A DNA stretch of 43,602 nt from a virus (taxonomy: Duplodnaviria; Heunggongvirae; Uroviricota; Caudoviricetes): IMG/VR virus record IMGVR_UViG_2541047812_000007, positions 1-43,602 of that record; one strand, 5' to 3'. Under the pieces are notes generated by a model, which ran no database searches, was not told the DNA's origin, and saw only the letters and a list, made by a program, of their open reading frames with translations. How positions within the stretch are numbered: the first letter of the stretch is position 1; each line of letters opens with the position of its first letter. Shown here one piece after another: positions 6,626 to 29,395 of this stretch. A program made the position numbers and the translations under genes.

Positions 6626-6662
6626 TTTGCAAAACGTGCTGGATAGCAAACAAATTATTTGC

Positions 6663-10026: not shown

Positions 10027-10098
10027 GTCGTTAATTCCTATACGTAGTTTTACGATACTGAAGCCCTGACGGTCTGGCCACCGTGGGGCTTCGCTGTT

Positions 10099-10266
10099 TT
10101 ATGCCACGCTATTCTTCTCACCAGTGAGTCCATACACTTTCCTCAGCTGATAGATAATCTCTGTATTGAACTTTCGGCATTCTTTTTCGCCATTTCTTTC
10201 AATAGCTAACTTCACATCGTCCGGAAAACGAACTCGTCGTTGACACATCTCTTTTGCTTTTTGCAT
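10099..10266 (-). CDS. Arc-like ribbon-helix-helix repressor
   Basis: 55 aa from internal ATG with SD AAGGAG 7 nt upstream; resembles P22 Arc (RFPDDVKLAIERNG...NTEIIYQLRK). Confidence 0.6.
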   Translation of the reverse strand: MQKAKEMCQRRVRFPDDVKLAIERNGEKECRKFNTEIIYQLRKVYGLTGEKNSVA

Positions 10267-10280
10267 TTCATATCTCCTTA

Positions 10281-10295
10281 GCCCCACCGTGGGGC
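10281..10295. promoter_or_regulatory. Palindrome GCCCCACCGTGGGGC upstream of the arc-like gene
   Basis: Inverted repeat next to the arc SD; core CCACCGTGG recurs at 10078-10086 and 29359-29367. Confidence 0.35.
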
Positions 10296-10386
10296 AAAAT
10301 AATTGTCACACCGTGCGTCATTGATGTCAAGCACACGGTGAGGCATACTTCAATCATTGCAAGTAACTCAATATTTGGTGAAGAAC

Positions 10387-10818
10387 ATGAGCAGAGAAGA
10401 TCCACAACTAAGGATCAGACTTCCCGTCGAAGTAAAAGAAAAAATAGAAATTTCTGCAAAAGCCAATAAGCGATCAATGAACGCTGAAATAGTACAACGT
10501 CTTGACACCAGCTTTCTGAAAGATATTCATGAAGATGACGTAATTTCTGCTTATGAAGCAAAAATCATTGCAAACAATGCACGACATGAAATATCAAATA
10601 TTATTTTCAAAAGAACCTTTAATGAAATTAATAAGAAAATAACACTTGGACATACAAGTTTTTATATAAACCTTAATGACCTTGAACTGGAATCACTTGC
10701 AGATAATGATTACCAGATCATCTTTGAAAAAACATTTAATAGGCTCAATGAACTAGGTTACATCATCTGTGAAAACTCATGGGATGCAGATGGTTTTGGA
10801 ATTGAAATACCTGAATAG
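10387..10818 (+). CDS. Mnt-like ribbon-helix-helix regulator with a ~95-aa C-terminal extension
   Basis: N-terminus resembles P22 Mnt/Arc (LRIRLPVEVKEKIEISAKANKRSMNAEIVQRL); divergent from arc/ant; AT-rich C-terminal domain of unknown family. Confidence 0.6.
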   Translation: MSREDPQLRIRLPVEVKEKIEISAKANKRSMNAEIVQRLDTSFLKDIHEDDVISAYEAKIIANNARHEISNIIFKRTFNEINKKITLGHTSFYINLNDLELESLADNDYQIIFEKTFNRLNELGYIICENSWDADGFGIEIPE

Positions 10819-10831
10819 GAAGAACAAAAGG

Positions 10832-10848
10832 CGTGTACATATTACACG
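10832..10848. promoter_or_regulatory. Perfect palindrome CGTGTA-CATAT-TACACG
   Basis: 17-bp inverted repeat between the mnt-like gene and the membrane protein gene. Confidence 0.3.
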
Positions 10849-10908
10849 TCTTTAATACAATTGAAAAACGCCACATTACTGATGTATGTTACAACAAGGA
10901 GCGATATT

Positions 10909-11472
10909 TTGAAAACCATATCTATATTAAAGGTTGCATTAGGCGTCGCTATTATTTTGACTCTCTCAATATTGTTTTATTTTTACCACAAACAAACTGC
11001 TATTGCTCTTGATAGTCACGCGGCAAACTCATTTTTCTCAGAGTACATAGTGCCGCTATCAGGAAGCGGTATAACAAATAAATATACTGACTATGACATC
11101 AAATATGGAATTGATGATGGGGAGACTATTGTATTACATGTAATCATTAAAAACCTAATGACAGTAAATAAAAATACAGACTTCAACGATAAAAATACAA
11201 TACATCACAACAACAGCAAAACATTAATTTCTTATAGTAGCAACATCTATACGGATAAATACCTAAAATACATATCAGAAGATACAATAAAAGAAACCCG
11301 CGAAAAGTTAAAAAACATATATTGTGCATCCGGCAGTTTTCACAAATTATCGCCGCAAGAGCGTTTATTCTACGAAGCAAGAAAACAACGTAAGTCAATA
11401 ATATTACATTATTATGCTGATTCAGGGGAGACACTCATATTTAATATTGGGGTTTCCCCTGAATCATGCTAA
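10909..11472 (+). CDS. AT-rich membrane-anchored protein, candidate superinfection-exclusion moron
   Basis: TTG start 7 nt after strong SD AAGGAG (ORF-track start 10861 also TTG); N-terminal TM helix; roughly 33% GC; occupies the position of sieA in P22-type maps. Confidence 0.55.
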   Translation: MKTISILKVALGVAIILTLSILFYFYHKQTAIALDSHAANSFFSEYIVPLSGSGITNKYTDYDIKYGIDDGETIVLHVIIKNLMTVNKNTDFNDKNTIHHNNSKTLISYSSNIYTDKYLKYISEDTIKETREKLKNIYCASGSFHKLSPQERLFYEARKQRKSIILHYYADSGETLIFNIGVSPESC

Positions 11473-11483
11473 AGGTGTTTAAC

Positions 11484-14400
11484 TCACCGCATCACCGGAT
11501 CCACTTGGTTTATTAGTGGCGCAATCCAGAACAGGTTATTGCCGGGTATCAGGGTTCGGACATTATGCACAATACGATCACCGGCATCACCATTCAACAC
11601 TCCTGAGGTCACATCAATGATGCTATCCGCAAGACCAAATGACGGTCCGAATAGAGATCCTACGAATCCACGACTGGCATACCTGGACTGTGTGCCAGTG
11701 CCAAATAAAGCCCCCAGCCCAACAGCACCACCAGTCGCCTTTTCAGCCATGTTGTTATATTCCATCAATGGCCCAAGAATACCGGATCTATCTATACCCT
11801 CAAGCACCAGCTTCTCTGGTGACCAGTCAACATTTTTCCCTTTCGATGCTTCTTTAAGCGCATAGACCAGTGAGCCAAGAGCAATCTGAAATGCAGTGCC
11901 ATAATAAAATTGCGCAGTTCCTTCCTGTAACCCACCAAGTAGCGCACGGTTGTATGAAGCCGTTGTGAATGATTTAAACTGAAATATCGTTCGCCCCATT
12001 GGAGTACTCGCCCATAAAGGTGTGTCACCAATACCGGGGGTGATGATAGTGTTATTAACGTCTTTCAGAACCGCTGACTGGAATACTCCGGCAACGTACT
12101 GATCGTCCCATTTATCAAAGTTACCAATGTGCCATCCATCAATTACCTCACCATGTTTCTCGAACTCACTGCGAATACGCGCAGCCATATTGTCGTTGAT
12201 ACCGAGTTTTGCCATGCGACGTGCAGAAAACGCACCAGACAAAATACCGTCTGACGTGAGCATTCCGTTCATGGATTTGTTTATGTCATTAAATCGATCC
12301 ATGAGTGTCAGCTTGCCGAAGGCATCAGTAATTCGCTCCATTCCTGCTTCGACTGCTGTTGTCCTGGAAGAACTGTCAACAAGATCACCAATTGCACGAG
12401 AACGTGAATGTAGTACAGTTTCCAATCCAATCCCCATCTTCAACATCTCTTCTTTGCTGGCCTTAAATGCCGGTGATTGGGATATCTGAGAAGCATAGCC
12501 TTTCATGGAGTTACGGAAACCATTAACCATAACCCCTCTGGCCAGATCTGGAATAGCTGATACTGTCATTCCACCGAGTTTGGTCGTGAAGTTCACATCC
12601 CGCAGAAAAGCGCCAGCACGAACAAAAAACGAAGACGGGTCATCAGGCATACCATATGTACCAACAAGACGATCGCGTAATGCTGTTATGTCTCTGAGAT
12701 CATTTGCTCTTGATTTTGAAAGTCTGGACTGTTCTTTCCGTAATTCCTTTTCGTACTTTCGCATTAATGAATCGAGTTTACCCTGAGGAACAACTTCACC
12801 ATTGCTCTCATAACGTGCTTTCAGATTTGCCACACTTTCGTCATATTTCGCCTTTATTTTTTCAGGCACTTCCCGTAACAGACTGTCATATTCGTCCTCA
12901 ATTAATTGCAGACGCTCTGTCATAGTTCGTTTGCCAAATGTTCTCGTCAACTCAATTTCTGCTGCCGCTTCACGGATATGACGTTGTAGAACGTAATTCA
13001 CATCACTTTCGAGATAATCCCTGATAAGACTATCAGGCACATTTAATGTTCTTTCTTTCGTACTACCTGCGGCTTTTACAGAAAATACGCTGACAAAATC
13101 CTGTGGAACCTTAGCACCAGTAATTTTATTAATTACGATATCCGCTGCAATTTCAGCATCCTCAGGATCCAGTGTTTTATTGCCTCTCGACCACCAGTCA
13201 ACCAAAATACGTCGAAATTTATCGCGTTCACTGATTATTTTTCCAACTTTATATATACGTGGGAAATAGCTTGCCTGGCCTAATGCTTTCAGTTCTTCAT
13301 CTGGCGGCAATAAACCAAGCTTTTGCATTTCAACCTTCACCCGATTTAATACAGTTCGCATCGCCTGCGCCGTTTCCTGAACAACAGGATTAGCATGCAC
13401 ATCACCGCTTCGCATAGCATTCCCAACCTGCTGACGAAATGAATCAAAACTCATGTCACCACCATCAGCTTTATACTTTGCGTATGCCTGTTTATTTCCG
13501 ACAACAACAGCAGCTTCTTCACGCTGCCATCCACGTGTACGGGTTTCTACAGCTACCGGTGTTTCAATCCCCCTTTCATTTCCTTTAAGGGTGAAATTAT
13601 TTTCGGCTAACTCCAGCGTTGTTTTTCGCACTGTCTTGGACGGAGACTCCATTAACCTTGTCAAAGGAGTAAGATAGCTCCCTGCTTTCCATGCAGCCTT
13701 TCCAACCACCCCACCGGAAACAGGGGTTAAATCATCCAGAGTCGCTGTATCAATTTTCATAGCACCAACACTACCACCATCAGAAAGCGAAGCGGCAGCC
13801 CTGTCAGTCGCTGATGTAATGCTCATATTATCAAGAGCATCAGCAACCTCACGCGTGGCTGCAGCCCGGACGGATGGCGAAAGCGCAACACCAGCACTGG
13901 CAAACACGCCGCTCATCATCGCACCCGCTGCAATGTGAGCGGCACTTTCACCCCATGAGCGTGTTATTTGCTGATTATTCAGCACAACCTCGCTTAATGC
14001 TGTACCGGCTGCACCAATCGCAATCTGTGAGCCAATACGCGCCAGTGCCCCTCCTTGAGCACCGGGGATAAACATTGACGCAACAGTAACCGGATCCATT
14101 CCCGCAGCAATACTGGCAAGGGTTCCAACTACGCCAGCATCAGACAATAAACGTCTGTCTTCATTTTCATCATCTATCTGCTGCTTAATCCACGCCGTTT
14201 CCTCTGGCGATCGGGAATCTGCAAATTTCGCCCCCCAGTATTCATAACCGTGCAACTCATTTTTATCAGCATATGGGTTATAACCTTCGACCGGTTCAAA
14301 CTGTCTGGCTGGTCGGAAAAAACCAGCCAGAATATTGTTCTGTCGCATTGCAGCCCCCCATACGGAAGGCTCCGGTGGCAATGGCTCAGGATTAGCCCCT

Positions 14401-14498
14401 TCCGGAAGGGCAACATCAAACCCAGTTTGTTCCGGCAAAACATTACCTGACGGGATCAGTCCGTTATTAAGATCTTCAGCTTGTGCATAAACTGGCAT
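11484..14498 (-). CDS. Large internal virion/ejection protein (1004 aa)
   Basis: Long ORF in the virion operon downstream of the transglycosylase protein; size and position like podovirus internal core proteins. Confidence 0.65.
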   Translation of the reverse strand: MPVYAQAEDLNNGLIPSGNVLPEQTGFDVALPEGANPEPLPPEPSVWGAAMRQNNILAGFFRPARQFEPVEGYNPYADKNELHGYEYWGAKFADSRSPEETAWIKQQIDDENEDRRLLSDAGVVGTLASIAAGMDPVTVASMFIPGAQGGALARIGSQIAIGAAGTALSEVVLNNQQITRSWGESAAHIAAGAMMSGVFASAGVALSPSVRAAATREVADALDNMSITSATDRAAASLSDGGSVGAMKIDTATLDDLTPVSGGVVGKAAWKAGSYLTPLTRLMESPSKTVRKTTLELAENNFTLKGNERGIETPVAVETRTRGWQREEAAVVVGNKQAYAKYKADGGDMSFDSFRQQVGNAMRSGDVHANPVVQETAQAMRTVLNRVKVEMQKLGLLPPDEELKALGQASYFPRIYKVGKIISERDKFRRILVDWWSRGNKTLDPEDAEIAADIVINKITGAKVPQDFVSVFSVKAAGSTKERTLNVPDSLIRDYLESDVNYVLQRHIREAAAEIELTRTFGKRTMTERLQLIEDEYDSLLREVPEKIKAKYDESVANLKARYESNGEVVPQGKLDSLMRKYEKELRKEQSRLSKSRANDLRDITALRDRLVGTYGMPDDPSSFFVRAGAFLRDVNFTTKLGGMTVSAIPDLARGVMVNGFRNSMKGYASQISQSPAFKASKEEMLKMGIGLETVLHSRSRAIGDLVDSSSRTTAVEAGMERITDAFGKLTLMDRFNDINKSMNGMLTSDGILSGAFSARRMAKLGINDNMAARIRSEFEKHGEVIDGWHIGNFDKWDDQYVAGVFQSAVLKDVNNTIITPGIGDTPLWASTPMGRTIFQFKSFTTASYNRALLGGLQEGTAQFYYGTAFQIALGSLVYALKEASKGKNVDWSPEKLVLEGIDRSGILGPLMEYNNMAEKATGGAVGLGALFGTGTQSRYASRGFVGSLFGPSFGLADSIIDVTSGVLNGDAGDRIVHNVRTLIPGNNLFWIAPLINQVDPVMR

Positions 14499-17215
14499 TA
14501 TTTAGATCCCCACGAAAAGTAATCTTTAAATTTGTCCATACGTTCGTTATGCAGGCGCTGATACTGCTCATCCAGAGCGCGATGCTTGTCTTTGAAGTTT
14601 CGTATAGCCTGTCCACGCATAATTTCTTCCTGCTCGTACTGCTCCCGTTCCTGCTGCATTTTCTTATAAGGTTCCCAATCTTCTAGTGATGGTTCCCAAC
14701 GCATAGGACGCCCATGTTTGTTATAAAACGGCTGGACCCGATCGATGCCATTTTCATCCTTAGTTCTTACCATAATGGCGTAATCACCATTACGAGGTGT
14801 TAACACGTCAGGGGTTATGAATAATTCTCCATTAATACGACTCTCAGGGGTTTTTGTCTCAACTACAGGAGCATTACCTGACGTGATCCCAAGCAACGTC
14901 GGACTGGTTGTTATAATCTCTTTGCGCTCACCGTACATCAGCCGTTCTTTTTCAGCTTTCCACTGCGCCGCCTGCCAGCCTGACGGCCCATATTGATAAA
15001 GCGCCTCCGGTGCATATTTCATAAACTGCGCTTCTCCGTTAACCTCGCTGATACTCCAGGTGCGGGCTATCTGCTGGTTGGTCATTTGCTTCGCTACGTC
15101 AGCGTTACCACCAGCAACGCGGTAGTTAATGTCATACAGCGTCTGATAGTCATTACGGAATCTAGCTGCTTCCGGCGTCTGGTCATCCGCAGACGGATCC
15201 CAACGGAACCACTGCGCCATATTGCTGACAGCAGAATTCATCGCCTTGCTGCGATTATTTTTGTACTCTTTTGAACTCTGCGTTGATGCCAATTGAGCTT
15301 TAAGAGCATCGGTCTGGTTGTACGTCAGGTTCTGCGCCTGCTCGATAGCCGCATCAGCAGACATGCCAGAATCTGTTAGTTGCTTAACAGTCAGATAAAA
15401 ACCCTGCATATCCTTCGGCATATTTCCAATAGATGCATTGTCTGTTTCATATAACCGACTAAACAAATTCGCTGCATTTTTAACCACTTCCTGATTGCTG
15501 GATCTGGATACTGCTGAAAGCTGCGTGATGACCTGCGAAGGCATGATGCCAGTCTGAGCCACAAGCCGAACAACCCCATCATGAGTGGAGGCATCATTAA
15601 TACGAAAGTTCTGCGCCATTTCTGTGTAATCAGCAGCTTTCTGCATTGATTTGTTGCTTGGGTCTAATTTTTCACCTATTGTCAGCGCCTCATTGAATCT
15701 GCGTGAATCACGTTGCGCCTGAATTGCTTCATTTGATCGCTGAAGCAATGCAGACAATTTTCCGTAAGCATCGAGTTTTAACGCATAGTGAGGATCGTTA
15801 ACCTCAGGCTTCACTTTCTGCATTTCTTCTTGCTGCTGAGAAGGAGGTAAATACTGAATTGCCTGGAATATTCTCGCGTTATCAATCGCTATATCCAGTT
15901 GATTGATTATTTTATCTGCATTTTTTCCATACCCCCTGATGATAGTCTCCTGAGCCGGTATATAATCTGGAACCTCACCGTTATATAGCTGGGCCATGGT
16001 GTTATTAATAGCTGGCTCAAGCTGTTCTAATATTAACTTCCTTTGCTTTTCTATCTGACTATTAGCAAGGTTATCTATTTGATAAATAGTCAGCGGATCC
16101 ATTCCAGTTTTATTTTTTCTATATCGGGAAAGCCACCCTTGTGTTTCTGATGGAAGATTTCGGATAAATTCTTCTTCTGATATTTCACCTTTACGTGGAT
16201 CACCGACTTTGGCGATCAGTTTATCCACGTTACCCATCCCCCAGTTATATGCTGCTCCGGTCAATATTTCGGAGCCGTACTTACCATACAGTTGATTTAC
16301 ATAGTCACTGGCGAGCATTTCATGCTGTTGTTCGTCCGTAGGGTTGTATTTAACGCCACGCTTGGCCGCCAGTTCTTTCCCTGTGCCCGGCATTAACTGG
16401 TATTTCCCCTGGGCTCTCTCTCCAGAAGATGTTATCGGTCCTTCAAGAAGACTACCATCAGGATTAAAATGTCGATCACCTGATTCAACAAGGCGTATGG
16501 CACGCATGTCCATGCCTCCAGAATCATTTTTCTGAAACAGACCATTTAGCCATCCTTCTGGATTGGCAGCGGCATAATTCTTCGCCCGCATTTCTGTGGC
16601 ACGGCGATCATCACTTTCTATTTCTTCCAGAATGCGTTCTTGTGACCATCCCCTGGCAGCTCCATATCTAGCAATGGCTACCATTCTGGAATTTCTGGCT
16701 AAAGTGGCAGTTTGCGGGTCATTCCAGGCATCCGCTTCATTTTGTATCCATAATTTTCTCGTTGCCTGATATTGCTCATCTTCATAGGCATTTGTCTGCC
16801 CTATCTCATGTCTGAGAACTCCAGTACTGAACTGAATTTTCTGTGTTCTGGCTTGTTGCAAAAACATATTTCTTGCTGCTTCATCAGTCAATGAAGCAGC
16901 TATTTCTTCCACATCCTGATCAAATCCAGATATGTACTCTTGCCCCTTACCAATCGCATTTTTGCCTTGTTGTGCATAAAAACCGGTTTGAGGGTTATAA
17001 AGACGTTCATTGCTGCGCTGATTAAGCTGAAGGATGGCATCCTGAGACAATGCAACATTCGCTTTCTGCCTGGCTTCACCATATGCCACCGCATACTGAT
17101 CTGCGACATTCGCCAGCACCTGACCTGCTTGAGGAACATCGAAGATCTGAAAACCACCGGTTTGCACACCACGACTTTGCACCTGGCGTCCGGATGTAGT
17201 AGGAACAACAGGCAT
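14498..17215 (-). CDS. Internal virion protein with lytic transglycosylase (SLT) domain
   Basis: SLT motifs LVESGD, AQGKYQLMPGT and AAYNWGMGNV at aa ~235-335 (nt ~16211-16515). Confidence 0.8.
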   Translation of the reverse strand: MPVVPTTSGRQVQSRGVQTGGFQIFDVPQAGQVLANVADQYAVAYGEARQKANVALSQDAILQLNQRSNERLYNPQTGFYAQQGKNAIGKGQEYISGFDQDVEEIAASLTDEAARNMFLQQARTQKIQFSTGVLRHEIGQTNAYEDEQYQATRKLWIQNEADAWNDPQTATLARNSRMVAIARYGAARGWSQERILEEIESDDRRATEMRAKNYAAANPEGWLNGLFQKNDSGGMDMRAIRLVESGDRHFNPDGSLLEGPITSSGERAQGKYQLMPGTGKELAAKRGVKYNPTDEQQHEMLASDYVNQLYGKYGSEILTGAAYNWGMGNVDKLIAKVGDPRKGEISEEEFIRNLPSETQGWLSRYRKNKTGMDPLTIYQIDNLANSQIEKQRKLILEQLEPAINNTMAQLYNGEVPDYIPAQETIIRGYGKNADKIINQLDIAIDNARIFQAIQYLPPSQQQEEMQKVKPEVNDPHYALKLDAYGKLSALLQRSNEAIQAQRDSRRFNEALTIGEKLDPSNKSMQKAADYTEMAQNFRINDASTHDGVVRLVAQTGIMPSQVITQLSAVSRSSNQEVVKNAANLFSRLYETDNASIGNMPKDMQGFYLTVKQLTDSGMSADAAIEQAQNLTYNQTDALKAQLASTQSSKEYKNNRSKAMNSAVSNMAQWFRWDPSADDQTPEAARFRNDYQTLYDINYRVAGGNADVAKQMTNQQIARTWSISEVNGEAQFMKYAPEALYQYGPSGWQAAQWKAEKERLMYGERKEIITTSPTLLGITSGNAPVVETKTPESRINGELFITPDVLTPRNGDYAIMVRTKDENGIDRVQPFYNKHGRPMRWEPSLEDWEPYKKMQQEREQYEQEEIMRGQAIRNFKDKHRALDEQYQRLHNERMDKFKDYFSWGSK

Positions 17216-17790
17216 CAGTAACCTCCTATTTTGAATCGGGAGTCAGAATTCATAAAACCTGAGTTAGATAACATTGGCGTCCCACCACTAGATGTACTTC
17301 CTTTAGAGAACGGACTCCACGTCCCACCAAACATCTGGTACGCACCGTATGCCTTCAGAGGCGCAGTGAGCAATGTTGTTGCTGCTCCCACATTCCCCTG
17401 TTTACGGGCTGAACTGGCTTCTGCTTTATAGTTGGCAGCCTGAACCTGATAACCGTAAGCCTCGCGTTGCGCGTTATTCACCGTCGTCAGAGAATCAAGA
17501 GCGCCAAACTGGGCAGTGTCGCCAAATATATCCAGCGCGTTACCTGTAGATAAATCAGCGCCGGTAGCCCCCATTGTCGCCGCCTGTGTACCAAGCCGCT
17601 GTCGGGTCTCTCTGCGCCGTTGCTCAGCTTCAGCGTTACCTCTGTTTATTGCATCATTTGCCTGAGCTGTGGCTATATCTGCGTTCGCTTCTGCAACCTT
17701 CGAGGCATACTTTCCCTGTTGGTACTGGGTGTATGCCTGAATGCCACTCATGGCGAGCATTGCGCCACCAGCAATAACCGGATCGCACAT
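17215..17790 (-). CDS. Internal virion protein (191 aa), gp14-like position
   Basis: Ala/Gln-rich protein between the small gp13-position gene and the large core proteins. Confidence 0.55.
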   Translation of the reverse strand: MCDPVIAGGAMLAMSGIQAYTQYQQGKYASKVAEANADIATAQANDAINRGNAEAEQRRRETRQRLGTQAATMGATGADLSTGNALDIFGDTAQFGALDSLTTVNNAQREAYGYQVQAANYKAEASSARKQGNVGAATTLLTAPLKAYGAYQMFGGTWSPFSKGSTSSGGTPMLSNSGFMNSDSRFKIGGY

Positions 17791-18254: not shown

Positions 18255-20725
18255 CAGAATCCCCCAACAGTAAGGCGAGGAATAACGGCAAGAACAGACA
18301 GCGGCAACGGATCAAGCTGACGGATTTTTACACGTCCGTTTTTGCCCCAGTTACTGTCCAGTTTCACTTCTACTTTTCCGGTAGCATCATCAACAGGATC
18401 ATCGTAGAACTCGAATTCACGCTGTGGATATTCGTACCATTTACCGCCGGGCGTAGTCGCCCAGATGCCGCGACTGGCATTCACAACCAGAGTAACGGAC
18501 GGGATCACCTGTTTTTTGTCCAGCAGCGTTTCCTGTCCGTTAATGTTGATATCCAGTGTTTCGAATTCAGCAGTTATTGGCAGGCCGATGTGCACAACAG
18601 CCCCAGGTGATTCCAGCGTGACGGCACCTCCGGAAACCACTTTCTGTGGTTCCACGTTCGCATCAGAGAGGATGTTTACGGTCTGGCCTTCAAGATGAGA
18701 CAAGCCGCCAAATGTCCGGCGCGCCATCTGCCAGTTCGTGGTGGCCACATTCCTGAGGGATGGCGGGACGTTCCTGTTAGCACGAACCACTACAGCGGTA
18801 TTGCTGGTTACAGAAATAATGTCGCAACGTAATTCTTTTGACACCTCATCGCCAGTATCAGGATCAGTTCCGGTATAAGGGAACTGTAGTTGCGCGCCGA
18901 CATCACTACTGGTGAAGTACGCACCACCAGAAACACTGATTGTATATTCCGCGCGGTAATCCCATTCGCCAGAACCACCAGTGATGGTCATCGTTCTGTC
19001 AGACGTATTTCTTCCATCATAGCTAAGGCCAGAATCAACAAAGAAAGCATCTTCATCGCTGGTAAATAAACGGCTGGACAGTCGCTCGATGTATCTCACT
19101 GTTTGCCCGTTAACGGTTCGGTTAATGACGAAATACACCGCATCTTCATTGCCTTCGCTGATACTGCATGTGCTTTCATATTTTCCGGTACTGGACTGTG
19201 GTGCCCATGCAAAAACCTGTTGATCACGCAGATAGGTCATCACCAGTAATTTACCGTCATCACGAATGCAGAAGGCGCTGGAGTAAGGGACAATAGAGAA
19301 GCACCAGTCAACAATGCTGTGCTTCTGAAAAAGATGATTGGCAAGGATAGTAAGGTCGTTCCCCTGATAGCCGTCAACATCGAATGAATAGGCCAGATCA
19401 CGGACAACACTGCCTTTCTCCTGGACGAACAGAGCAATATTCGCCACGGCAATTGGTGGGACGTTGCTTGAGCCATTTGATCCCTGAGAGCTGAATGCAA
19501 ATGATGATGGGGTTAACACTTTGTTCTGGTCGCCGGTGATGACGTACTCACCTCCGGAAGTCAGCGCCACCAGCGAACCAACATCAATCAGGTGGCGGAT
19601 CTCATTAACCTGACGCCCGGCATAGGTGTAGATAATTCTATCGTCATCCTGCGTAGGATTGCTTTTGCCAAAATCCTTATAATCCCCAGTACGGCTGGCC
19701 CAGATAGTCTGAGGGAACGCAGTCGATGCGGCGAAGTAAAGACGCTGTTGATAATAAACAACAGTGCCAGGATAACCATTAACACTGTTCCAGGCATATT
19801 TAGCCCATTTATAGCTGGCATTATCCTCGCCAACGACCTGCGAAGGGATATAGGAAATCACCTCAGCAGTTGCAGTAGTGCCATTTACAGCAGTTATACG
19901 GGCAATGCCAAAACCACTGTGCAGATACTCCCACTCAATGCCAGTATCATCATCACCGGAGCCTCCCCAGCCATCCCATGATGTGCCTTCTGTATGCGAA
20001 GGGCGCAAAGTGCCTGTTTTGCCTGCTGTAACGGCGCGATAGTAGTTACTGTCTGCACGGCGAATATCGCCAATCGACGTACTCTTACTGGTTTCCCATA
20101 CCGGTACTGAATCCACTGCTGGCTGTTCCAGATAGAACAATTTGCCTACCTGCTCCGCGCCAAAAATAGAGGCGCTTGCCGTTAACGTAATTGTCCCGGT
20201 GCTGGCGCTGGCATAAACCGTCACTGACTCGTCAATATTGATATCTTCAAATGGCCCGTTCTTCGTTACCACATCAACCAGTTGCCAGTTGTCATGCGCA
20301 TAGCGGCGCAACTCTTTCGGCGGGTATGCCGGATGAACCAGCGTAAGCACGTCTGCGCTTTGCGTGAATTTAATTCTGAACAGATCGGCTTCAGTATATG
20401 GCGTGGCAATTTCATAAATAACATTGCTGCTGTTCAGCACCAACGCACCATCTTTGATAACGCGCATGTACTGGTGTCCGAACTCCAGAGCATAAGTCTG
20501 AACCGTCGAGAACTGGAACGGGATCAGGCGGCATTTCCGATTTGGGTATTTGGCGGCACCGACAAAACGCGTACCAGGTCGACTCTCAACGCCGCCATAC
20601 TGCCGCACGATAAAGTTATCGCACTTGCGCAATGCCACCTGGTACTTCGCCATGTCGATACGACCGTACAACGACGGTCCAATCTCACCACCGGCAAAGC
20701 TGGGCTGGATCCAACTGATAGCCAT
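18254..20725 (-). CDS. Tail tubular protein B-like (nozzle)
   Basis: 823 aa; N-terminal pattern loosely resembles T7 gp12; follows the gp11-like gene. Confidence 0.6.
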   Translation of the reverse strand: MAISWIQPSFAGGEIGPSLYGRIDMAKYQVALRKCDNFIVRQYGGVESRPGTRFVGAAKYPNRKCRLIPFQFSTVQTYALEFGHQYMRVIKDGALVLNSSNVIYEIATPYTEADLFRIKFTQSADVLTLVHPAYPPKELRRYAHDNWQLVDVVTKNGPFEDINIDESVTVYASASTGTITLTASASIFGAEQVGKLFYLEQPAVDSVPVWETSKSTSIGDIRRADSNYYRAVTAGKTGTLRPSHTEGTSWDGWGGSGDDDTGIEWEYLHSGFGIARITAVNGTTATAEVISYIPSQVVGEDNASYKWAKYAWNSVNGYPGTVVYYQQRLYFAASTAFPQTIWASRTGDYKDFGKSNPTQDDDRIIYTYAGRQVNEIRHLIDVGSLVALTSGGEYVITGDQNKVLTPSSFAFSSQGSNGSSNVPPIAVANIALFVQEKGSVVRDLAYSFDVDGYQGNDLTILANHLFQKHSIVDWCFSIVPYSSAFCIRDDGKLLVMTYLRDQQVFAWAPQSSTGKYESTCSISEGNEDAVYFVINRTVNGQTVRYIERLSSRLFTSDEDAFFVDSGLSYDGRNTSDRTMTITGGSGEWDYRAEYTISVSGGAYFTSSDVGAQLQFPYTGTDPDTGDEVSKELRCDIISVTSNTAVVVRANRNVPPSLRNVATTNWQMARRTFGGLSHLEGQTVNILSDANVEPQKVVSGGAVTLESPGAVVHIGLPITAEFETLDININGQETLLDKKQVIPSVTLVVNASRGIWATTPGGKWYEYPQREFEFYDDPVDDATGKVEVKLDSNWGKNGRVKIRQLDPLPLSVLAVIPRLTVGGF

Positions 20726-21330: not shown

Positions 21331-21345
21331 AAGTTTCTATACTCC

Positions 21346-21370: not shown

Positions 21371-21386
21371 GTCTGATTCGCGAGGC

Positions 21387-21731: not shown

Positions 21732-21732
21732 C

Positions 21733-22170: not shown

Positions 22171-22221
22171 CTTCTTTCTCCATTAGTGGGTCTGTTACGA
22201 CCCACAGGTTAATAACAGGCG

Positions 22222-23208: not shown

Positions 23209-23222
23209 TGTTATTTCCTCTC

Positions 23223-23924
23223 TTATTTGCCATAGAGCACTTCGGCCGCACTACGCTGGCCTTCATTACCACCGGTGACCATGCCATCCTCAGACATCGC
23301 CTTTCCGATTTTCACGAACGTTTTGACCAGATCAGGGTGATTACCCAGTCCGGTGGTGTTCAGATATTCTTTGAGTTCAGGTGTCCCGAACTGGTCAAGC
23401 GCACGCTGTGCGGCGCTAAGGTTAGAAATCAACTTGTCGCCACCGATTTCTTTGTCAGCTTTTACATCCGCAGCCCACTGCTCGGTTGTTTTCTGCCAGG
23501 CTTCTGCCTGGCGCTGCTGAACACCTGCCAGAATCTTCGGATAAGCATCAACCAGCTTTTGCGCTTGCTCGTTGGTCAGGTTAAGTTCTCGCGCCACCGG
23601 CTCGAATTCCTTCAACGCTTCTGTATCCAGCTCTACGCCTTCGGCTGCCTGAAACTCGTACTTCTCAGGCGCACCCTCTGGTTTATCGCCGTCCTTTTTT
23701 TCATCCTGCTTATCGTTTTCAGGCTTTTTGTCATCAGCAGGTTTATCGCCATCAGCAACAAGTTGTGGCTTATCACCTTCCTGTTGTGATGGATCACCAA
23801 CTGGAGCAGGGTTATCACCTGCAGGCGCTGACGGTTCTGACGCAGCCGGAGCTGCTCCACCATCGACTGGTTGCTCATTGCAAAGACGGCGATACAGCAA
23901 ACGCTCAAATAAATTCATGATCAC
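23223..23924 (-). CDS. Scaffolding protein
   Basis: Acidic, Pro/Ala/Asp/Lys-rich 233-aa protein between portal and capsid genes. Confidence 0.7.
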   Translation of the reverse strand: MIMNLFERLLYRRLCNEQPVDGGAAPAASEPSAPAGDNPAPVGDPSQQEGDKPQLVADGDKPADDKKPENDKQDEKKDGDKPEGAPEKYEFQAAEGVELDTEALKEFEPVARELNLTNEQAQKLVDAYPKILAGVQQRQAEAWQKTTEQWAADVKADKEIGGDKLISNLSAAQRALDQFGTPELKEYLNTTGLGNHPDLVKTFVKIGKAMSEDGMVTGGNEGQRSAAEVLYGK

Positions 23925-24217
23925 TCCTGTTCACTGGCCTCTTTGGCCATCTTCAAATACTGTTCAGGGCAATGCGCCATAACGCGCTGAAACAGTTCCA
24001 GCGCCAGATTGCGTTGCCCCTCATTAAATGCCATTGCCATAGCGTCCATCGGTGAGATAGCGGAAAACACACGGCCTTTCTCCAGCACCGACCAGACAAC
24101 GCGACGCCCCTGTTCACTGCTCATGACAAAGCGAATGTCATCAATTTCACGCTGCGCCATGTCACGTTGCTTACGGGCGTTTTCTTCTTTCAGTTGATCG
24201 TCTTCGTAATCTGTCAT
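23921..24217 (-). CDS. Hypothetical protein (98 aa) between portal and scaffold
   Basis: ORF with 4-nt overlaps on both sides. Confidence 0.5.
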   Translation of the reverse strand: MTDYEDDQLKEENARKQRDMAQREIDDIRFVMSSEQGRRVVWSVLEKGRVFSAISPMDAMAMAFNEGQRNLALELFQRVMAHCPEQYLKMAKEASEQE

Positions 24218-25893
24218 TGTGATTGCCCACCCTGACCACTAACTGCATTCGCCATAGCTGACAACACACTCGGATCCGAAGTTTTAGCTTCGCTTAGCGT
24301 CTTGGCCCCCTGTGCCGCCGCCATCCCCATCGCCATCATTTGTTGCTGCTGTTGCTGCTGTGCCCGTTGCTGGCGAGCCTGCTCAACCTGTTCCTGCGGA
24401 ACAATGACGGTTGGAGACACTCCGGACATATCAGCGAATGCATCGATCGCCTGATCAACGTTGAGTTTGTCGAGAGCTTCTGGTTTCGCTTGCGCAAGTT
24501 GACCAATGAAGTTAACCGTGGACGCCAGACTGGACAGGCCGATAGACTTCTGCGCCTGAGCCATGACGGAAATGTATTCGACCTTCAGGGGCATACCTTC
24601 CATCACGTCTGGCGGTGGCGGCAGCATGTTTTTACGCACCATCATCGAGAAAGAGCGGTCAATGAGAGGATTAAGACATTCGTCGTTCAGACGCTCCAGA
24701 ACCGGCCCCAACATCAGAAGTTTTTCTTCTTTCATTTCGATCACCGCTTCAACAGGCATCGAGCGGGTATTGATGTTCTGCAACATCATGAACAGATCGA
24801 CAAAGTAGGCGCTGTTAATGATTTGACGAGTGTCCTGAATGTCTGCCACCAAATCTGCTGTACTGGGGTTAACCAGATAAGCAGGCCTGAAACCATCCTG
24901 ACCAGTAATCTGATCGATATACGTGATGTCGCCAGGAAGAAGGGAGGCACGCTGATTCTTGAGGGAAGTCGGAGCAACCATCGGCGGATTGGTGGCTTTA
25001 TCAATCAACTGCGACTTGCGCTTCTGGAGAAGCTGCAATGCCTTAACAGGTCCAAGCGCCAGCATACCCGGGCATGATGATCCATAAACATCTTCGCCGT
25101 TAACTTCCCAGCGCGGAGCCATAATTGGAAACTCATCGAATCCGGACTCACGCAACAACTTGTCGTTATCGCCACAAACCTCGTAATAAACCGATTTGAA
25201 TGGCTTGTTCTTGCTATCCAGCTTCGATGTATCGCGGTCAATGTTCGGGTAAACCGAATGCATCACTTCAATCCACTTCTCGTAGGTTCCGCTTTCCCAC
25301 ATGCTTTTTACGGATTCGCTGACGTTATTTAGCCCGAACTCCTGAACAAGCTGACGAACAGTCATAGAGAACTTGCGAAAACAGGTGTCCACACTGCCAC
25401 GAGGTGAGTTAGCCAGGTAGTAACTGCCTATCGGGAATGGCATTGTGCGAATGATGTCCTCGTCATCCTCCAGCACCGCCATTGCACCAGTGCTGTATGT
25501 GCCGAGGCTTCCGTATAACTGCGGCAGCGACTGATAGAGATTCGACTTATTGAACATATCGTTCATGCGGTTCTGCACCGCCTCAAGCCACAACTTAACA
25601 GGGCCATAATCCATCATTTCAGGATCTGGCGTAGCCAGGCGAAACCACGGACGCGCGGGGCTTGTGATGCCTGACATCATGCCGCTGGCGAGAGTGCGCG
25701 CCGCCATAGTCCCGGTCGAATCAATAATGCGTGTATTGCGTCGATCGTTACGGTTGACCTCAGAAGTCAGAAAGCGGGAACCACGCGGGTTGATGTAATC
25801 ACTCAACTCGCGCCAGTGCGGCTCGAACGACTGACGCTCGCTTTCAAATTGTGCGAACTGTTTGTTCAATCGCTCTTTAGTTGTTTCCGCCAT
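24214..25893 (-). CDS. Portal protein, podovirus type
   Basis: 559 aa; Gln/Ala/Met-rich C-terminal tail like T7-type connectors; located between terminase and scaffold. Confidence 0.85.
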   Translation of the reverse strand: MAETTKERLNKQFAQFESERQSFEPHWRELSDYINPRGSRFLTSEVNRNDRRNTRIIDSTGTMAARTLASGMMSGITSPARPWFRLATPDPEMMDYGPVKLWLEAVQNRMNDMFNKSNLYQSLPQLYGSLGTYSTGAMAVLEDDEDIIRTMPFPIGSYYLANSPRGSVDTCFRKFSMTVRQLVQEFGLNNVSESVKSMWESGTYEKWIEVMHSVYPNIDRDTSKLDSKNKPFKSVYYEVCGDNDKLLRESGFDEFPIMAPRWEVNGEDVYGSSCPGMLALGPVKALQLLQKRKSQLIDKATNPPMVAPTSLKNQRASLLPGDITYIDQITGQDGFRPAYLVNPSTADLVADIQDTRQIINSAYFVDLFMMLQNINTRSMPVEAVIEMKEEKLLMLGPVLERLNDECLNPLIDRSFSMMVRKNMLPPPPDVMEGMPLKVEYISVMAQAQKSIGLSSLASTVNFIGQLAQAKPEALDKLNVDQAIDAFADMSGVSPTVIVPQEQVEQARQQRAQQQQQQQMMAMGMAAAQGAKTLSEAKTSDPSVLSAMANAVSGQGGQSQ

Positions 25894-25907
25894 TTCAATG
25901 ACTCCGG

Positions 25908-26114
25908 TTACTGACCAAGCAGCGTTTTACCGCTGGTATTAGCAGTTGATGTGTCGCCCTGAGAACCGGTAAGCAGCGTAGAACTACGACCAGCAGCAAC
26001 GCGACGGCGACGAGTTTCTTCGTCGCGGGCATCAACAACGGCGGCATCCTGCTCCTGTGGTGCTGCCTGAACTTCTGGTGTTGCAGGCACTGATGGTGAG
26101 CTACCCATGCACAT
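25908..26114 (-). CDS. Small low-complexity protein upstream of portal
   Basis: 68 aa with SD GGAG; could be non-coding. Confidence 0.35.
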   Translation of the reverse strand: MCMGSSPSVPATPEVQAAPQEQDAAVVDARDEETRRRRVAAGRSSTLLTGSQGDTSTANTSGKTLLGQ

Positions 26115-26204
26115 ATCAATGACTCCGTACGCAATTAAATTATTACCAATTTAACCACATATGATTTATTTATCGTAGACAGTTGACATTTAACGCGCGA
26201 ATTA

Positions 26205-26219
26205 TTACCTTTCAGGTAA
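26205..26219. promoter_or_regulatory. Palindromic operator-like site TTACCTTTCAGGTAA
   Basis: Identical to the 6611 site; 16 bp downstream of a TTGACA hexamer. Confidence 0.4.
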
Positions 26220-26541
26220 CCAAAGAGTTCATTCCGGTTACTAACCTGACTGGCTTGTCGTTAAATTGAACAGGTGGAGTGAGCTTTTATTTTGAGCAGT
26301 ACGGCGTATGGCACATGCGCCGATAGCGGTCTGGATGCGTTTAAGGGGCACCCTCCCTGGCTGTGGCAAACGAACCAGGTAGCCGGAATGTGCAAGTCGA
26401 GCGGTTTTATTCCGCGCACGGGGATTCACCATCCCGGCGATTCGGTGTGACGCCTCGGAAGAGACGAGGGTACAACGATGAGAGCATTTATGGAGCCGCG
26501 ACAAAGTGTGGCGCCTTAACAGGCTAAGTGCTCTCAGCGTT

Positions 26542-26618
26542 GTGGCATTAGCTCAGTTGGACAGAGCAACCGCCTTCTAAGCGGTTGGTCGCAGGTTCGA
26601 ATCCTGCATGCCACGCCA
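26542..26618 (+). tRNA. tRNA-Arg, anticodon UCU (reads AGA)
   Basis: 77-nt cloverleaf folded by hand: acceptor GTGGCAT/ATGCCAC, D-arm GCTC/GAGC, anticodon stem ACCGC/GCGGT with loop CTTCTAA, T-arm GCAGG-TTCGAAT-CCTGC, discriminator G, encoded CCA. Confidence 0.9.
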
Positions 26619-26787
26619 GAATCACGCCTAAGGACCGTGATGCCAGAAGTTCCAGGTGCTTGGCGGTGATGGTTTCCCTTGAAGGACTATCACCGCCCTT
26701 GCCCTTTTTACAGCAGGACGCCATTGCGATGACTTCATGCTGTAAACCAGTACAGCCACGGAAGGCATAACTCATTGCTTCCAGTTC

Positions 26788-26811
26788 GCCCGGTTCGCCG
26801 GGCATTTTTTT
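26788..26811 (+). terminator. Rho-independent terminator downstream of the tRNA
   Basis: GCCCGG-ttcg-CCGGGC followed by ATTTTTTT; a second hairpin with U-tract lies at 26662-26710. Confidence 0.7.
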
Positions 26812-26822
26812 AAGGTGAGATT

Positions 26823-27197
26823 ATGAACGACCAGCAAATCGAAAAAGAAATCGTTGAGAAAGGTAAAACGGCACCTCGTGTAACTCCTGAGAAAATTGAA
26901 GGTCTCATTTGCAGTGAGCATTTTTTTACTGCTGCGCAGGGGGATCATCAGGCTAAAGAAGATGACCTTATTTATAATCCAGAGCCTTATGTCGAAGCCA
27001 CCCCTGATGCTCTGCACCTTCTCACTTTCTGCGTCCTGGTGCTGCGCAACGGCTTCACCGTCACCGGAGAGAGCGCCTGTGCAAGCCCGGAAAACTTTGA
27101 TGCAGAAATTGGTCGGAAGATTGCCCGACAGAATGCTGTAAACAAAATCTGGATGCTTGAAGGTTACTTGCTGAAGCAGAAGTTAAGCGAGCAATAA
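26823..27197 (+). CDS. Hypothetical phage protein (124 aa), part of the plus-strand island
   Basis: SD AAGGTGAG before ATG; followed by a terminator; family not confidently recognised (possibly Gp49-like). Confidence 0.65.
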   Translation: MNDQQIEKEIVEKGKTAPRVTPEKIEGLICSEHFFTAAQGDHQAKEDDLIYNPEPYVEATPDALHLLTFCVLVLRNGFTVTGESACASPENFDAEIGRKIARQNAVNKIWMLEGYLLKQKLSEQ

Positions 27198-27217
27198 CAC
27201 CGTGACATATCACAAAC

Positions 27218-27245
27218 AGCCAGCCTATGAGCTGGCTTTGTTTTA
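27218..27245. terminator. Bidirectional hairpin between the island gene and terL
   Basis: AGCCAGC-ctatga-GCTGGCT with T-rich tracts on both sides. Confidence 0.5.
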
Positions 27246-27287
27246 TCCTCATCAGAGGATATCAACAACATTATCCCCTCAAGCGGA

Positions 27288-28763
27288 TTAAGCATAGGGA
27301 TCGTAATCTGTGATGGCCTTGCCTTGCTGGTTCTGCTGCCCGGGAATTCGCAGACGCTTAGACACAGGGAACGCAAACGTCAGCAGTAGCGCATCGCCTT
27401 TACCCGGTGAACGCCCAAGCCGCTCCTTGATATCTTCCTTCGGTTCGATAACGATTTTACCGTCCACTCGAACTTTGTACTCTGCCGCCGACAGGTCGTC
27501 TGCTGTTTCCTGGTCATCCAGCATGCCGCCCAGCCTCAGCCATGTCTTGCATGAATTGAACATCTCCCCACGCTTGTTGAGCATCTGCGGGTCAGTAGAC
27601 GCGCCACCGAACGGAACAAGTTGCCATGTACGACCCCAGCCGTCACCGATTGACTTCAAACCGGTTCCGTAACCGAAGTCGATGAACACCGCGTCAGCCT
27701 GATACTGGTCTTCAAAGTCAGCGATACGCTTCGCCATAATCAGATCGTCGGTAGTCTTGTTGCCAGTCCACAGCACCTTACTGTGTAGCCCCTGCCGCAG
27801 GTATATCACAGCGTCATCAACGCCGGAGTATGCCGGGTCAACGCCGATTATCACCGGAGCATGTGCAACCTGCGCAGCGGTTACCACCCGTTTCATTGCC
27901 TCGTCAGTAAGACCGGTAGGGATAAACTGCAATTCAGATGCATCAGGGAATATGCCACGCACACGGATTTTAACGAAGTCGCTGTCTTCCCCGTAGTCAT
28001 CAACCCATTTCTGCAACTGCTGTTTGTTAGTGCCTTCCACCGTCCGGCTGTCAATCTGCGCAGTTTTCCAGCGGTGTTTATATTTGCGGAAACATTCGCG
28101 AAAACGCCCGGTGTTACGTGTAGGGTTTCCGAACGCCACCCAAATAATCTCAGTGTCTTCGTCCGTAAGCGCACCCTCGGCAACTTCCCACACCAGATCC
28201 GCAATGTTCGACGCTTCATCAAACACCACGATGATGCGTTTGCGCTCGTTGTGTAGTCCGGCGAATGCCTCGGTGTTGTGCTCAGACCAGGGTATTGCGT
28301 CAGCCCGCCACCGCTTGTCGTGCCCTAGGTCATTGCTGTACATCGCGGTAGCGGTACAGGTAAACCAGTCTTTCGTGATAGCAAGGTTCGACCACTTGAT
28401 AATTTCCGGCCAGGTCTTCGTTCGTAGCTGGTTGTCGGTGTTGGCGGTCACCACGACCTTACAATCCTCGCAAGTGGACATGCCCCAGTTGATCAGCATT
28501 GAGATGAATGCGGATTTACCAATACCGTGACCAGAAGCGCGTGCCAGCATAAGCGGCTGATAGCGCGTCTCTGGATTCTGCAGGTGATCACGTATCTCTC
28601 GGAACGCATCAGCCTGCCACTGACGTGGGCCGGTGGCATGTGCCAGTTCAGTCCCCTCTTCCCCCCATGGGAACGCATAGAGGGCATAGCCAAGCGGATC
28701 GTGAGTGAACCCTGCAATATCCTCGATTAACTGCTCTTCAGGAGATAACGCTGTATCTGTCAC
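27288..28763 (-). CDS. terL: Terminase large subunit
   Basis: 491 aa with Walker A-like ASGHGIGKSAF; GTG start overlapping the terS stop (GTGA). Confidence 0.9.
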   Translation of the reverse strand: MTDTALSPEEQLIEDIAGFTHDPLGYALYAFPWGEEGTELAHATGPRQWQADAFREIRDHLQNPETRYQPLMLARASGHGIGKSAFISMLINWGMSTCEDCKVVVTANTDNQLRTKTWPEIIKWSNLAITKDWFTCTATAMYSNDLGHDKRWRADAIPWSEHNTEAFAGLHNERKRIIVVFDEASNIADLVWEVAEGALTDEDTEIIWVAFGNPTRNTGRFRECFRKYKHRWKTAQIDSRTVEGTNKQQLQKWVDDYGEDSDFVKIRVRGIFPDASELQFIPTGLTDEAMKRVVTAAQVAHAPVIIGVDPAYSGVDDAVIYLRQGLHSKVLWTGNKTTDDLIMAKRIADFEDQYQADAVFIDFGYGTGLKSIGDGWGRTWQLVPFGGASTDPQMLNKRGEMFNSCKTWLRLGGMLDDQETADDLSAAEYKVRVDGKIVIEPKEDIKERLGRSPGKGDALLLTFAFPVSKRLRIPGQQNQQGKAITDYDPYA

Positions 28764-29356
28764 TGATTGCCATCCTGACGTTCTTTCAGTCTCTTCCTGG
28801 CTGCCGCTATGCGATCAGCAATTGTCACATTCACATTAACATCCAGGCGTTCTTTGAATGCGTTGACGTCGACGTGCTTACCAATCAGTTCGAGGTTCTT
28901 CACCTTGTCAGGCCATTTAATTTTTTTGAGGATTGTCTCTATCGAATCCTCGTTCATGTTCATGATGGTCGATGACAGATCAAAGCCACTAAGCGTAGTG
29001 CGCCAGATTTTCGGCCACTCGCGGATTGGCTTAAGGCTCCCATCGTCGTTGAGGATGTCGATCACGTCCATCTGGTCGATCTCCACCAGGCGCATGAGAA
29101 CGTAATCAGCACTGACGCGCATTCGTTTGTTGCGCTCTTCCATCAGCTCGGCAATCCGTTTTTGAATGCGTTCATCGCGCATCATGAGACTGGCTTTAAC
29201 TGCCGCTGTATTTGGGGAGAATCCTGCGTTAATCGCAGCCTGAGTCTGGTTTTCAGGCGTTTGGATGTATGACTGGCAATAAGCCTCCTGCATTGCTGTT
29301 AGTGGCTTAAATTGCGTTGATTTGCGTTTATAGGTTTTAGGTTCAGCAGGCATCAT
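28760..29356 (-). CDS. terS: Terminase small subunit
   Basis: N-terminal pattern LTAMQEAYCQSYIQTPENQTQAAINAGFS typical of small terminase HTH; start set at ATG 29356 rather than the TTG ORF-track start at 29434. Confidence 0.7.
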   Translation of the reverse strand: MMPAEPKTYKRKSTQFKPLTAMQEAYCQSYIQTPENQTQAAINAGFSPNTAAVKASLMMRDERIQKRIAELMEERNKRMRVSADYVLMRLVEIDQMDVIDILNDDGSLKPIREWPKIWRTTLSGFDLSSTIMNMNEDSIETILKKIKWPDKVKNLELIGKHVDVNAFKERLDVNVNVTIADRIAAARKRLKERQDGNQ

Positions 29357-29363
29357 AACCACC

Positions 29364-29395
29364 GTGGTAATAGTTACCGTTGTGGTAATAGTACC
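29364..29395. repeat. Tandem direct repeat GTGGTAATAGT(T)ACC x2 just upstream of terS
   Basis: Two copies (29364-29378, 29382-29395); core CCACCGTGG at 29359-29367. Confidence 0.5.

Follow-up and report, generated by a model that had tools for sequence, protein, structure and literature searches.

How does one nine-base word, CCACCGTGG, come to stand upstream of three genes, ant, arc and terS, of a single prophage, and do its copies answer to a common protein? We asked this of a stretch of viral DNA of 43,602 nucleotides (nt), positions 1 to 43,602 of IMG/VR record IMGVR_UViG_2541047812_000007, which we call the window. Compared by tblastn, the window and Salmonella phage epsilon15 are colinear; the window has the reverse orientation and prophage order, starting with the lysis genes and ending with an integrase at 43602. 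Judged from its sequence, it is an epsilon15-like (Uetakevirus-type) prophage that carries a P22-type immI module between the virion-protein genes and the tail-fibre gene. The immI stretch (3 kilobases (kb) compared) is 97% identical to that of E. coli phage TL-2011b, the sole match to the module DNA among 50,697 phage records, and a comparison with 5,426 complete E. coli genomes found 38 that carry 80% or more of the module.

A whole-window scan found exact copies of CCACCGTGG at 10078-10086, 10284-10292 and 29359-29367, all on the plus strand, as the initial annotation had reported. Shuffles gave an expectation of 0.20 copies, and none of 100 shuffles reached three. When one mismatch was allowed we counted 10 matches against 7.25 expected, six of the ten being the three exact sites counted on both strands; near-copies of the word are at background level. 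The two immI copies (10078 and 10284) share a longer 12-mer, CCACCGTGGGGC. The tandem direct repeats described before terS are also there: GTGGTAATAGT occurs at 29364-29374 and 29382-29392, 18 base pairs (bp) start to start. The gene labels were likewise borne out (P22_AR_N domain in ant, Pfam Arc domain in the mnt-like gene, Terminase_2 in terS). From these observations it had been proposed that the copies bind the Arc-like or Mnt-like protein, thereby linking immI to packaging control, or that they form part of a packaging recognition site. We consider it likely, instead, that the three copies are three separate elements that share the word by coincidence, namely a Mnt-type operator, the stem of the sar terminator and an operator of the prophage repressor, Rep. 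Since the copies fall in three different known kinds of control element, CCACCGTGG would not constitute a new shared switch.

The elements of the immI module on which the argument for the copy at 10284 draws are as follows.

9088-10026, minus strand: ant, in which a P22_AR_N domain is fused to a C-terminal homologue of the SPC32H anti-repressor (5d50_E, E = 1.3e-14)
10099-10266, minus strand: arc-like gene, 55 amino acids, named 'Arc-like repressor' by RefSeq in TL-2011b
10387-10818, plus strand: mnt-like gene, 143 amino acids, with an N-terminal ribbon-helix-helix (PF03869, E = 1e-14)
10302-10330, minus strand: strong Pant-like promoter of arc/ant, TTGACA, 17 nt, GACAAT, with TG before the -10; 10 of 12 matches
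10321-10349, plus strand: putative Pmnt-like promoter, TTGATG, 17 nt, CATACT (TTGATG, 17 nt, CATAAT in relatives)
10281-10295: box O3, a 15-bp palindrome at the predicted +1 of the arc/ant promoter, holding the second copy of the 9-mer
10305-10319: box O2, CACCGTG core in the arc/ant promoter spacer, at the place of P22 Oarc
10330-10344: box O1, CACGGTG core, abutting the arc/ant -35 and filling the spacer of the putative mnt promoter

The copy at 10284 lies, as annotated, inside the palindrome near arc (GCCCCACCGTGGGGC, 10281-10295). On the minus strand this palindrome reads GCCCCACGGTGGGGC and begins 6 nt past the GACAAT -10, at the predicted transcription start; it is followed by AAGGAG and then by the arc ATG. 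In the curated P22 record, the feature 'Mnt protein; mnt operator' is CTCAATAGGTCCACGGTGGACCT (AGGTCCACGGTGGACCT), placed directly after the Pant -10. Comparison of GCCCCACGGTGGGGC with P22 GGTCCACGGTGGACC showed that all nine central bases, and 11 of 15 overall, are identical; indeed, the central nine bases of the P22 Mnt operator are the 9-mer CCACCGTGG. Like P22 Omnt, O3 is a near-perfect palindrome with a central CCAC(G/C)GTGG, and the same operator layout after the Pant -10 is seen in an E. coli prophage with genuine P22 Arc (L026). O3 also adjoins a divergently transcribed gene of the Mnt ribbon-helix-helix family, the product of which has 1mnt_A as its best PDB match (E = 3.4e-7) and is 30% identical to P22 mnt (E = 8e-7, tblastn). 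Position and sequence together support 10281-10295 as the counterpart of P22 Omnt, and for this copy the proposed binding by the Arc-like/Mnt-like proteins is supported.

Two further boxes accompany O3. We compared six diverged modules, with Arc-like proteins 67-81% identical to that of the window, from Raoultella, Citrobacter, E. coli and metagenomes. All six carry three boxes with a CAC-N-GTG core (CACSGTG) at held positions, abutting the -35, in the Pant spacer and at +1, while the flanks vary. O2 is almost invariant across 7 aligned modules, and O1, degenerate in the window, is a perfect CCCCACGGTGGGG in relatives. A weight matrix trained on 15 related sites from the other modules only, with the window's own sites left out, ranked O3 (24.7 bits), O2 (17.2) and O1 (14.1) first, second and third of 43,588 positions. 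The hexamers of the arc/ant promoter are invariant in our alignment (A1). The arc/ant and putative mnt promoters stand back-to-back: their -35 hexamers share 2 bp, and each spacer holds one box. Our promoter scan did not call the promoter at 10321-10349.

Searches of PDB, Pfam and NCBIfam with the 55-amino-acid Arc-like protein gave no match, or only spurious matches to TAL repeats. We nevertheless assign it to the ribbon-helix-helix proteins, on the grounds of its alignment to the Mnt-like N-terminus (gapless by BLASTP, E = 1e-5) and of the NCBI names. The two proteins have in common a Q-x-R-x-R-x-P beta-strand, the strand that contacts the bases in Arc and Mnt, and this fits a single core shared by the boxes. 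The Mnt-like protein, the Arc-like protein or both would thus bind 10281-10295 at the arc/ant start and block transcription of the antirepressor. In TL-2011b (L001, ~2895-2990) the mnt-like frame is seemingly disrupted near its 5′ end, with a tblastn match from residue 10 only, and RefSeq annotates a shorter, later-starting 'hypothetical protein' there; the window copy may therefore be the intact form.

The best surviving alternative for this copy is that 10281-10295 serves mainly as a 5′-terminal RNA stem-loop that stabilizes the arc-ant mRNA, rather than as an operator, although the two roles could coexist. The predicted start is the first G of the palindrome, and the RNA would form a stable hairpin (-11.8 kcal/mol). 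Moreover, in L009, L011 and L012 the left arm has become UCUCA/CCUCA, which is still paired by G-U wobble in the sense RNA, and in L015 the loop is changed and the stem kept. The fold, however, is no better than those of shuffles (z = -1.6), and L013 breaks the stem. The sister boxes O1 and O2 have the same core, yet cannot be 5′ hairpins of that transcript, and the curated record of P22 gives a proven operator at this very place. We therefore regard a mainly RNA role as unlikely and retain the operator for the copy at 10284. A terminator of the arc-ant transcript was also considered for this palindrome and rejected: on the minus strand the T-run is upstream rather than downstream, and the terminator scan found none there.

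For the copy at 10078, two features of the opposite strand matter.

10028-10095, plus strand: sar antisense RNA with the two-hairpin structure of Rfam RF00262 (44.8 bits, gathering score 43), covering model positions 1-68 of 68
9992-10020, plus strand: Psar-like promoter, TTGATA, 17 nt, TATACT, with TG, inside the 5′ end of ant

Encoded on the other strand, sar begins 2 nt away from the ATG of ant and is complementary to the ant leader and its ribosome-binding site; the Psar-like promoter occupies the place of the annotated P22 sar promoter. At 10060-10092, in the arc-ant spacer, sar forms a terminator hairpin (fold -24.1 kcal/mol) followed by GCTGTTTTAT, which the terminator scan missed because the T-run is interrupted. 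In this hairpin the first 9-mer (10078-10086) takes up two bases of the loop and the inner 3′ arm and extends two bases into the outer 3′ arm. Where the Rfam/P22 consensus has ACuG/CaGU in the inner stem, the window has ACGG/CCGU, a compensatory double change that creates the 9-mer. In a 95.6%-identical relative that shares the arc module and the +1 palindrome (L027), the sequence is CAACGGTGG, changed at a wobble/bulge position with the stem kept. The same type of terminator stands in L023 beside a LexA-family regulator instead of arc/mnt, and the inner sar stems of other arc modules are unrelated to that of the window. The copy at 10078 would thus be the 3′ arm of the sar terminator hairpin, constrained as an RNA stem and no protein site; the confidence expressed above attaches to the three-element reading as a whole. 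For this copy the proposed Arc/Mnt site was not upheld.

Three further ideas about this region were tried and dropped. The ant-leader hairpin is not a terminator of the arc-ant transcript, since the RNA that it terminates is sar, on the plus strand. A functional link would have been suggested had the arc-leader box and the sar terminator covaried across modules, but the resemblance is partial in L013 (CCCGACAGTG vs CCCCACAGTG) and lacking in L009, L011, L012 and L016, and L027 breaks the 9-mer. The idea that the two 12-mers are recombination scars around an arc cassette found no support: homology to CUS-3 stops at 10092, inside the sar terminator, and beyond 10092 CUS-3 has its own, different arc-like region, so that no deletion product is seen. 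As a separate observation, the sar terminator behaves as a recombination junction, at which CUS-3 homology stops (L002, ~2140-2170), L027 switches to a P22-type ant leader right past the hairpin, and L023 has the hairpin joined to a different regulator module.

The third copy lies in the leader of terS, where we found the following.

28760-29353, minus strand: terS, Terminase_2 (PF03592), 76% identical to epsilon15 terS; its start is likely the second ATG, at 29353
29373-29389, minus strand: candidate Rep operator terS O1, ATTACCACAACGGTAAC, 1 mismatch, 15.6 bits
29355-29371, minus strand: weaker candidate Rep operator terS O2, ATTACCACGGTGGTTAT, 1 mismatch, 9.8 bits, centred on the third 9-mer
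29388-29396, minus strand: putative extended -10 of the terS promoter, TGGTACTAT, overlapping terS O1 by 2 bp
29408-29425, minus strand: intrinsic terminator, GCCGCCAACTATGGCGGC then TTTATTTT, closing the upstream operon just before the terS control region
35815-36399, plus strand: Rep, the main prophage repressor, of the SPC32H/epsilon15 type (5d50_A, E = 3.5e-42, full length)

Read on the minus strand, the leader consists of the terminator, which epsilon15 annotates as the same stem-loop at 39646-39672, then TTTATTTTGCA, then TGGTACT ATTACCACAACGGTAAC T ATTACCACGGTGGTTAT GATG. Seven 'repressor' sites of the form ATTACC-N5-GGTAAT are annotated in the epsilon15 record, including one (12-27) that closely precedes terS. 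In the window this 17-bp motif occurs at 13 sites with at most 2 mismatches, against 1.3 expected, and none of 100 shuffles reached 13; a matrix trained on epsilon15 gave 8 sites of at least 15 bits where 0.13 were expected. The window sites fall at the homologues of epsilon15 12-27, 2931-2947, 19895-19911 and 32479-32632, plus a few more. Rep itself is 43% identical to epsilon15 gp38, with the N-terminal 'NLVNRW' segment conserved.

The third 9-mer consists of CC from one half-site, the ACGGT spacer, the GGT of which starts the Shine-Dalgarno sequence, and GG from the other half-site. The right half of terS O2 overlaps that Shine-Dalgarno sequence, GGTGG (29363-29359), as well as the first ATG. 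The terS O1 site is kept in relatives from E. coli, Salmonella, Enterobacter and Klebsiella, with half-sites held and spacers varying, and the adjacent second site is kept in epsilon15, PAT1 and BUCT554. Half-sites and GGTGGT are kept in the terS leaders and two other bases vary (AC in the window, AA in PH444, TC in epsilon15/PAT1, CA in BUCT554); only about two of the nine bases are therefore free at this copy. In PH444 the sequence is CCAAGGTGG, in which the 9-mer is broken and the Rep half-sites are intact. The TGnTAnTAT of the putative extended -10 is kept in four sequence variants among relatives. The 'direct repeat' of the initial annotation is explained by two adjacent palindromes in an 18-bp register. 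The copy at 29359 and the repeats would thus be two adjacent Rep operators, 18 bp centre to centre, a part of the same likely three-element reading; terS O2 is held with less confidence than terS O1.

Could a single Arc-like or Mnt-like protein nonetheless bind all three copies, with immI directly repressing terS and acting in the ant leader? Such a reading gains from the identity of the 9-mer to the P22 operator core and from its excess in the window, from the overlap of the terS copy with a Shine-Dalgarno sequence in a promoter-proximal leader, and from the 12 nt that the ant-leader copy has in common with O3. The terS copy, however, lacks both outer half-site flanks and scores -2.9 in the immI box matrix, rank 248 in the window, in a matrix that is small and harsh on flanks. 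The relative PAS61 (complete, 39.3 kb) has an identical terS leader, 9-mer included, and in it we detected no homologue of the Arc-like protein, the Mnt-like protein or P22 Mnt (best tblastn E = 0.03). The presence of the terS copy thus does not depend on the immI module, of which the DNA matched only TL-2011b among phage records. The loss of the 9-mer from PH444 with retention of the Rep half-sites, and the break or lack of the ant-leader copy in other arc modules, described above, speak in the same direction. We consider binding of all three copies by one such protein very improbable, and at terS we prefer the Rep operators.

The suggestion that the terS tandem repeats are a pac site bound by TerS fares equally poorly. 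The repeats adjoin terS, they are short repeated motifs, and the GenBank records of several relatives begin within ~50 bp of them. The record starts vary between phages, however, and opening genomes at terS is an arbitrary convention for P22-like phages (PMC2629481), while a literature search for Uetakevirus packaging ends found no end-mapping data. A pac site would be unique, whereas the motif occurs ~12 times in the window, mostly between genes and just upstream of them, which fits a transcription factor, and epsilon15 annotates it as a repressor site. We found no positive support for packaging recognition, and it has little claim to probability beside Rep operators.

A weaker form of immI control, confined to the TL-2011b-type lineage, would have the Mnt-like tetramer (operator core CCACGGTGG) also bind weakly the same 9-bp core in terS O2, and perhaps the 12-bp match in sar, a chance match in an ancestral terS leader having been co-opted after the module arrived. 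This is speculative and we hold it to be improbable in the extreme; if true, it would provide a second, Rep-independent lock on the packaging genes. Least credible is an action of sar in trans, in which CCACCGUGGGGC would pair with the arc mRNA 5′ hairpin (12 nt) and the terS Shine-Dalgarno sequence (9 nt) and couple ant control to arc/terS translation: the complementarity is exact at both targets and includes GGUGG at terS, yet the terminator stem of sar (-24 kcal/mol) sequesters this segment, and the arc target folds into a hairpin of its own. Neither L027 nor L023 nor the other arc modules retain the 9-mer in sar, and the terS sequence is present in phages without sar.

Several points weigh against the assignment of the three copies to three unrelated elements. 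Given one real copy, two extra exact copies arise by chance with p ~0.02 (shuffle mean 0.2). The excess shrinks because local constraints fix much of the word: 7 of 9 bases of the terS copy are set by operator half-sites and Shine-Dalgarno sequence, and the sar copy is three substitutions and a one-base deletion away from a P22-type terminator stem. This account of the repeated 9-mer is post hoc. The sar copy ranks 9 in the box matrix at 7.8 bits, a level at which ~5 chance matches (of at least 8 bits) are expected, and may bind a box protein weakly; the matrix over-weights flanks, and P22 Omnt itself scores merely 1.9. On the terS side, terS O2 alone, at 9.8 bits, is near background, with 1-3 chance matches expected, and the second site is absent in two Klebsiella relatives. 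The putative terS promoter lacks a -35, the promoter scan gave no call there, and the epsilon15 'repressor' features are record annotations.

If the immI proteins do not act at terS directly, what connects the two loci? Because PAS61 has the same terS leader without arc/mnt, the influence of immI on terS is probably no more than indirect and passes through the action of Ant on Rep. The C-terminal domain of Ant is homologous to the SPC32H anti-repressor, which has been co-crystallised with Rep (PDB 5d50), and 193 of 194 residues of the window Rep are those of the PAS61 repressor. According to a secondary summary (PMC9638917), SPC32H Rep binds palindromic sites as a tetramer, which tetrameric Ant disassembles. 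Over-expression of the repressor in phage ZX5, a relative, cut lysis-gene transcripts by >99.9%, and the anti-repressor favoured lytic growth (PMC9782041). Our literature search found no operator-binding map for this E. coli lineage. In the lysogen, we propose, Rep would directly silence the packaging operon at terS and act likewise at about ten other operators of the window, several of which closely precede gene starts. Mnt, Arc and sar would hold down Ant; once made, Ant would inactivate Rep, which would leave its operators, the terS pair included, and the terS promoter would open. The link between immI and packaging control suggested by the initial annotation would thus hold in this indirect form and not as direct binding.

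The other candidate Rep operators that we place outside the terS leader include these.

36456-36472 and 36518-36534: pair between rep and the leftward early genes
33395-33411 and 33457-33473: pair, the proximal member lying partly over the ribosome-binding site that serves the gene starting at 33392
26204-26220: upstream of the gp3/portal operon, the homologue of epsilon15 2931-2947
6610-6626: a perfect operator between the tail-fibre gene and the stand-alone ant, the homologue of epsilon15 19895-19911

We noted that these pairs are spaced exactly 62 bp start to start at both window loci and at two loci of PAS61 (L029; 5729-5807 and 8834-8912), suggesting cooperative or looped binding by a Rep tetramer. 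At 33392-33411 the right half of the operator doubles as the Shine-Dalgarno sequence of the downstream gene (ATTACCTCAGAGGTAAAtcATG), the same design as at terS. Between the portal operon and terL lies a tRNA-Arg gene (anticodon TCT; 26542-26618, plus strand), on the strand opposite to the structural genes.

Four genes of the window share one anti-repressor domain, a homologue of SPC32H Ant (5d50_E): 6705-6953 (plus), 7275-7970 (plus), 9088-10026 (minus) and 41668-42318 (plus). One stands alone and three are fused to Bro-N, P22_AR_N and AntA N-termini, each with a different control region, which suggests that several independent inputs may converge on one repressor. The stand-alone Ant is a close homologue of SPC32H Ant (E = 4e-47). 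A perfect LexA-box-like palindrome, CTGTATAAATATACAG, lies at 6665-6680, ~25 bp upstream of its gene and 40 bp from the Rep operator at 6610-6626, and would fit SOS control of the stand-alone ant. Two Rfam matches, isrK (77.9 bits) and C4 antisense RNA (77.7 bits), stand in tandem at 7042-7117 and 7142-7227 (plus strand), a short way before the Bro-N/Ant fusion, an arrangement that resembles the P1/P7-type immI antisense control; a weak Rep operator-like site (6990-7006) precedes them. Directly upstream of the AntA/Ant fusion gene at 41668, a match to Rfam sRNA-Xcc1 (64.8 bits; 41538-41627, plus strand) may represent another RNA-based antirepressor control.

Set against P22 immI, the module shows the same gene order (mnt, divergent promoters, arc, sar, ant). 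At the Pant start there is likewise a palindromic operator with central CCACGGTGG, sar has a promoter of its own within the first part of ant and a terminator between arc and ant, and Ant has a P22_AR_N domain. Its place within the virion-protein gene block near the tail-fibre gene is similar to that of the 'ant moron' of P22-like phages (PMC2629481). The host phage, in contrast, is epsilon15-like rather than P22-like. The operator flanks are GCCCC in the window and GGTCC in P22, and the window has three boxes of the same core where P22 has one Omnt and a dissimilar Oarc. The back-to-back promoters of the window differ from Pant and Pmnt of P22 (L028, 1445-1478), which face each other, overlap almost fully and share one Arc operator. 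The Mnt-like protein, with its 143 amino acids and ~30% identity to P22 Mnt, has another C-terminus, the Arc-like protein has no Pfam match, and the C-terminal domain of Ant is of the SPC32H type.

With the epsilon15/SPC32H system the window shares a full-length Rep homologue and the same operator consensus, ~ten-fold enriched, with candidate operators upstream of terS, upstream of gp3, in the tail-fibre/ant region and on both sides of rep; the stand-alone Ant with a LexA box upstream is a further likeness. It differs in that its Rep is only 43% identical to gp38 and in that terS has two adjacent sites, the second over the Shine-Dalgarno sequence, of which epsilon15 annotates the first only. 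The C1 repressor of phage P1 has many operators scattered over the genome, and these are asymmetric. In the window, similarly, Rep would act at many separate operators beyond the early-promoter switch, several near gene starts, and there is also an antirepressor operon controlled by an antisense RNA (C4). The repressor family and operator sequence are, however, unrelated to those of P1, and the window operators are palindromic.

The elements described here are of known types in a not-yet-characterised prophage, and the understanding of the families involved is unchanged. The three copies of CCACCGTGG carry the caution that an exact short word far above chance can still represent three unrelated signals. 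What the analysis offers is a regulatory map of a TL-2011b-type prophage of pathogenic E. coli, with a variant of the P22-type immI that has three boxes of the same core, a predicted full set of Rep operators that would include direct Rep control of the terminase operon, and a putative route by which the antirepressors may switch on the packaging genes.

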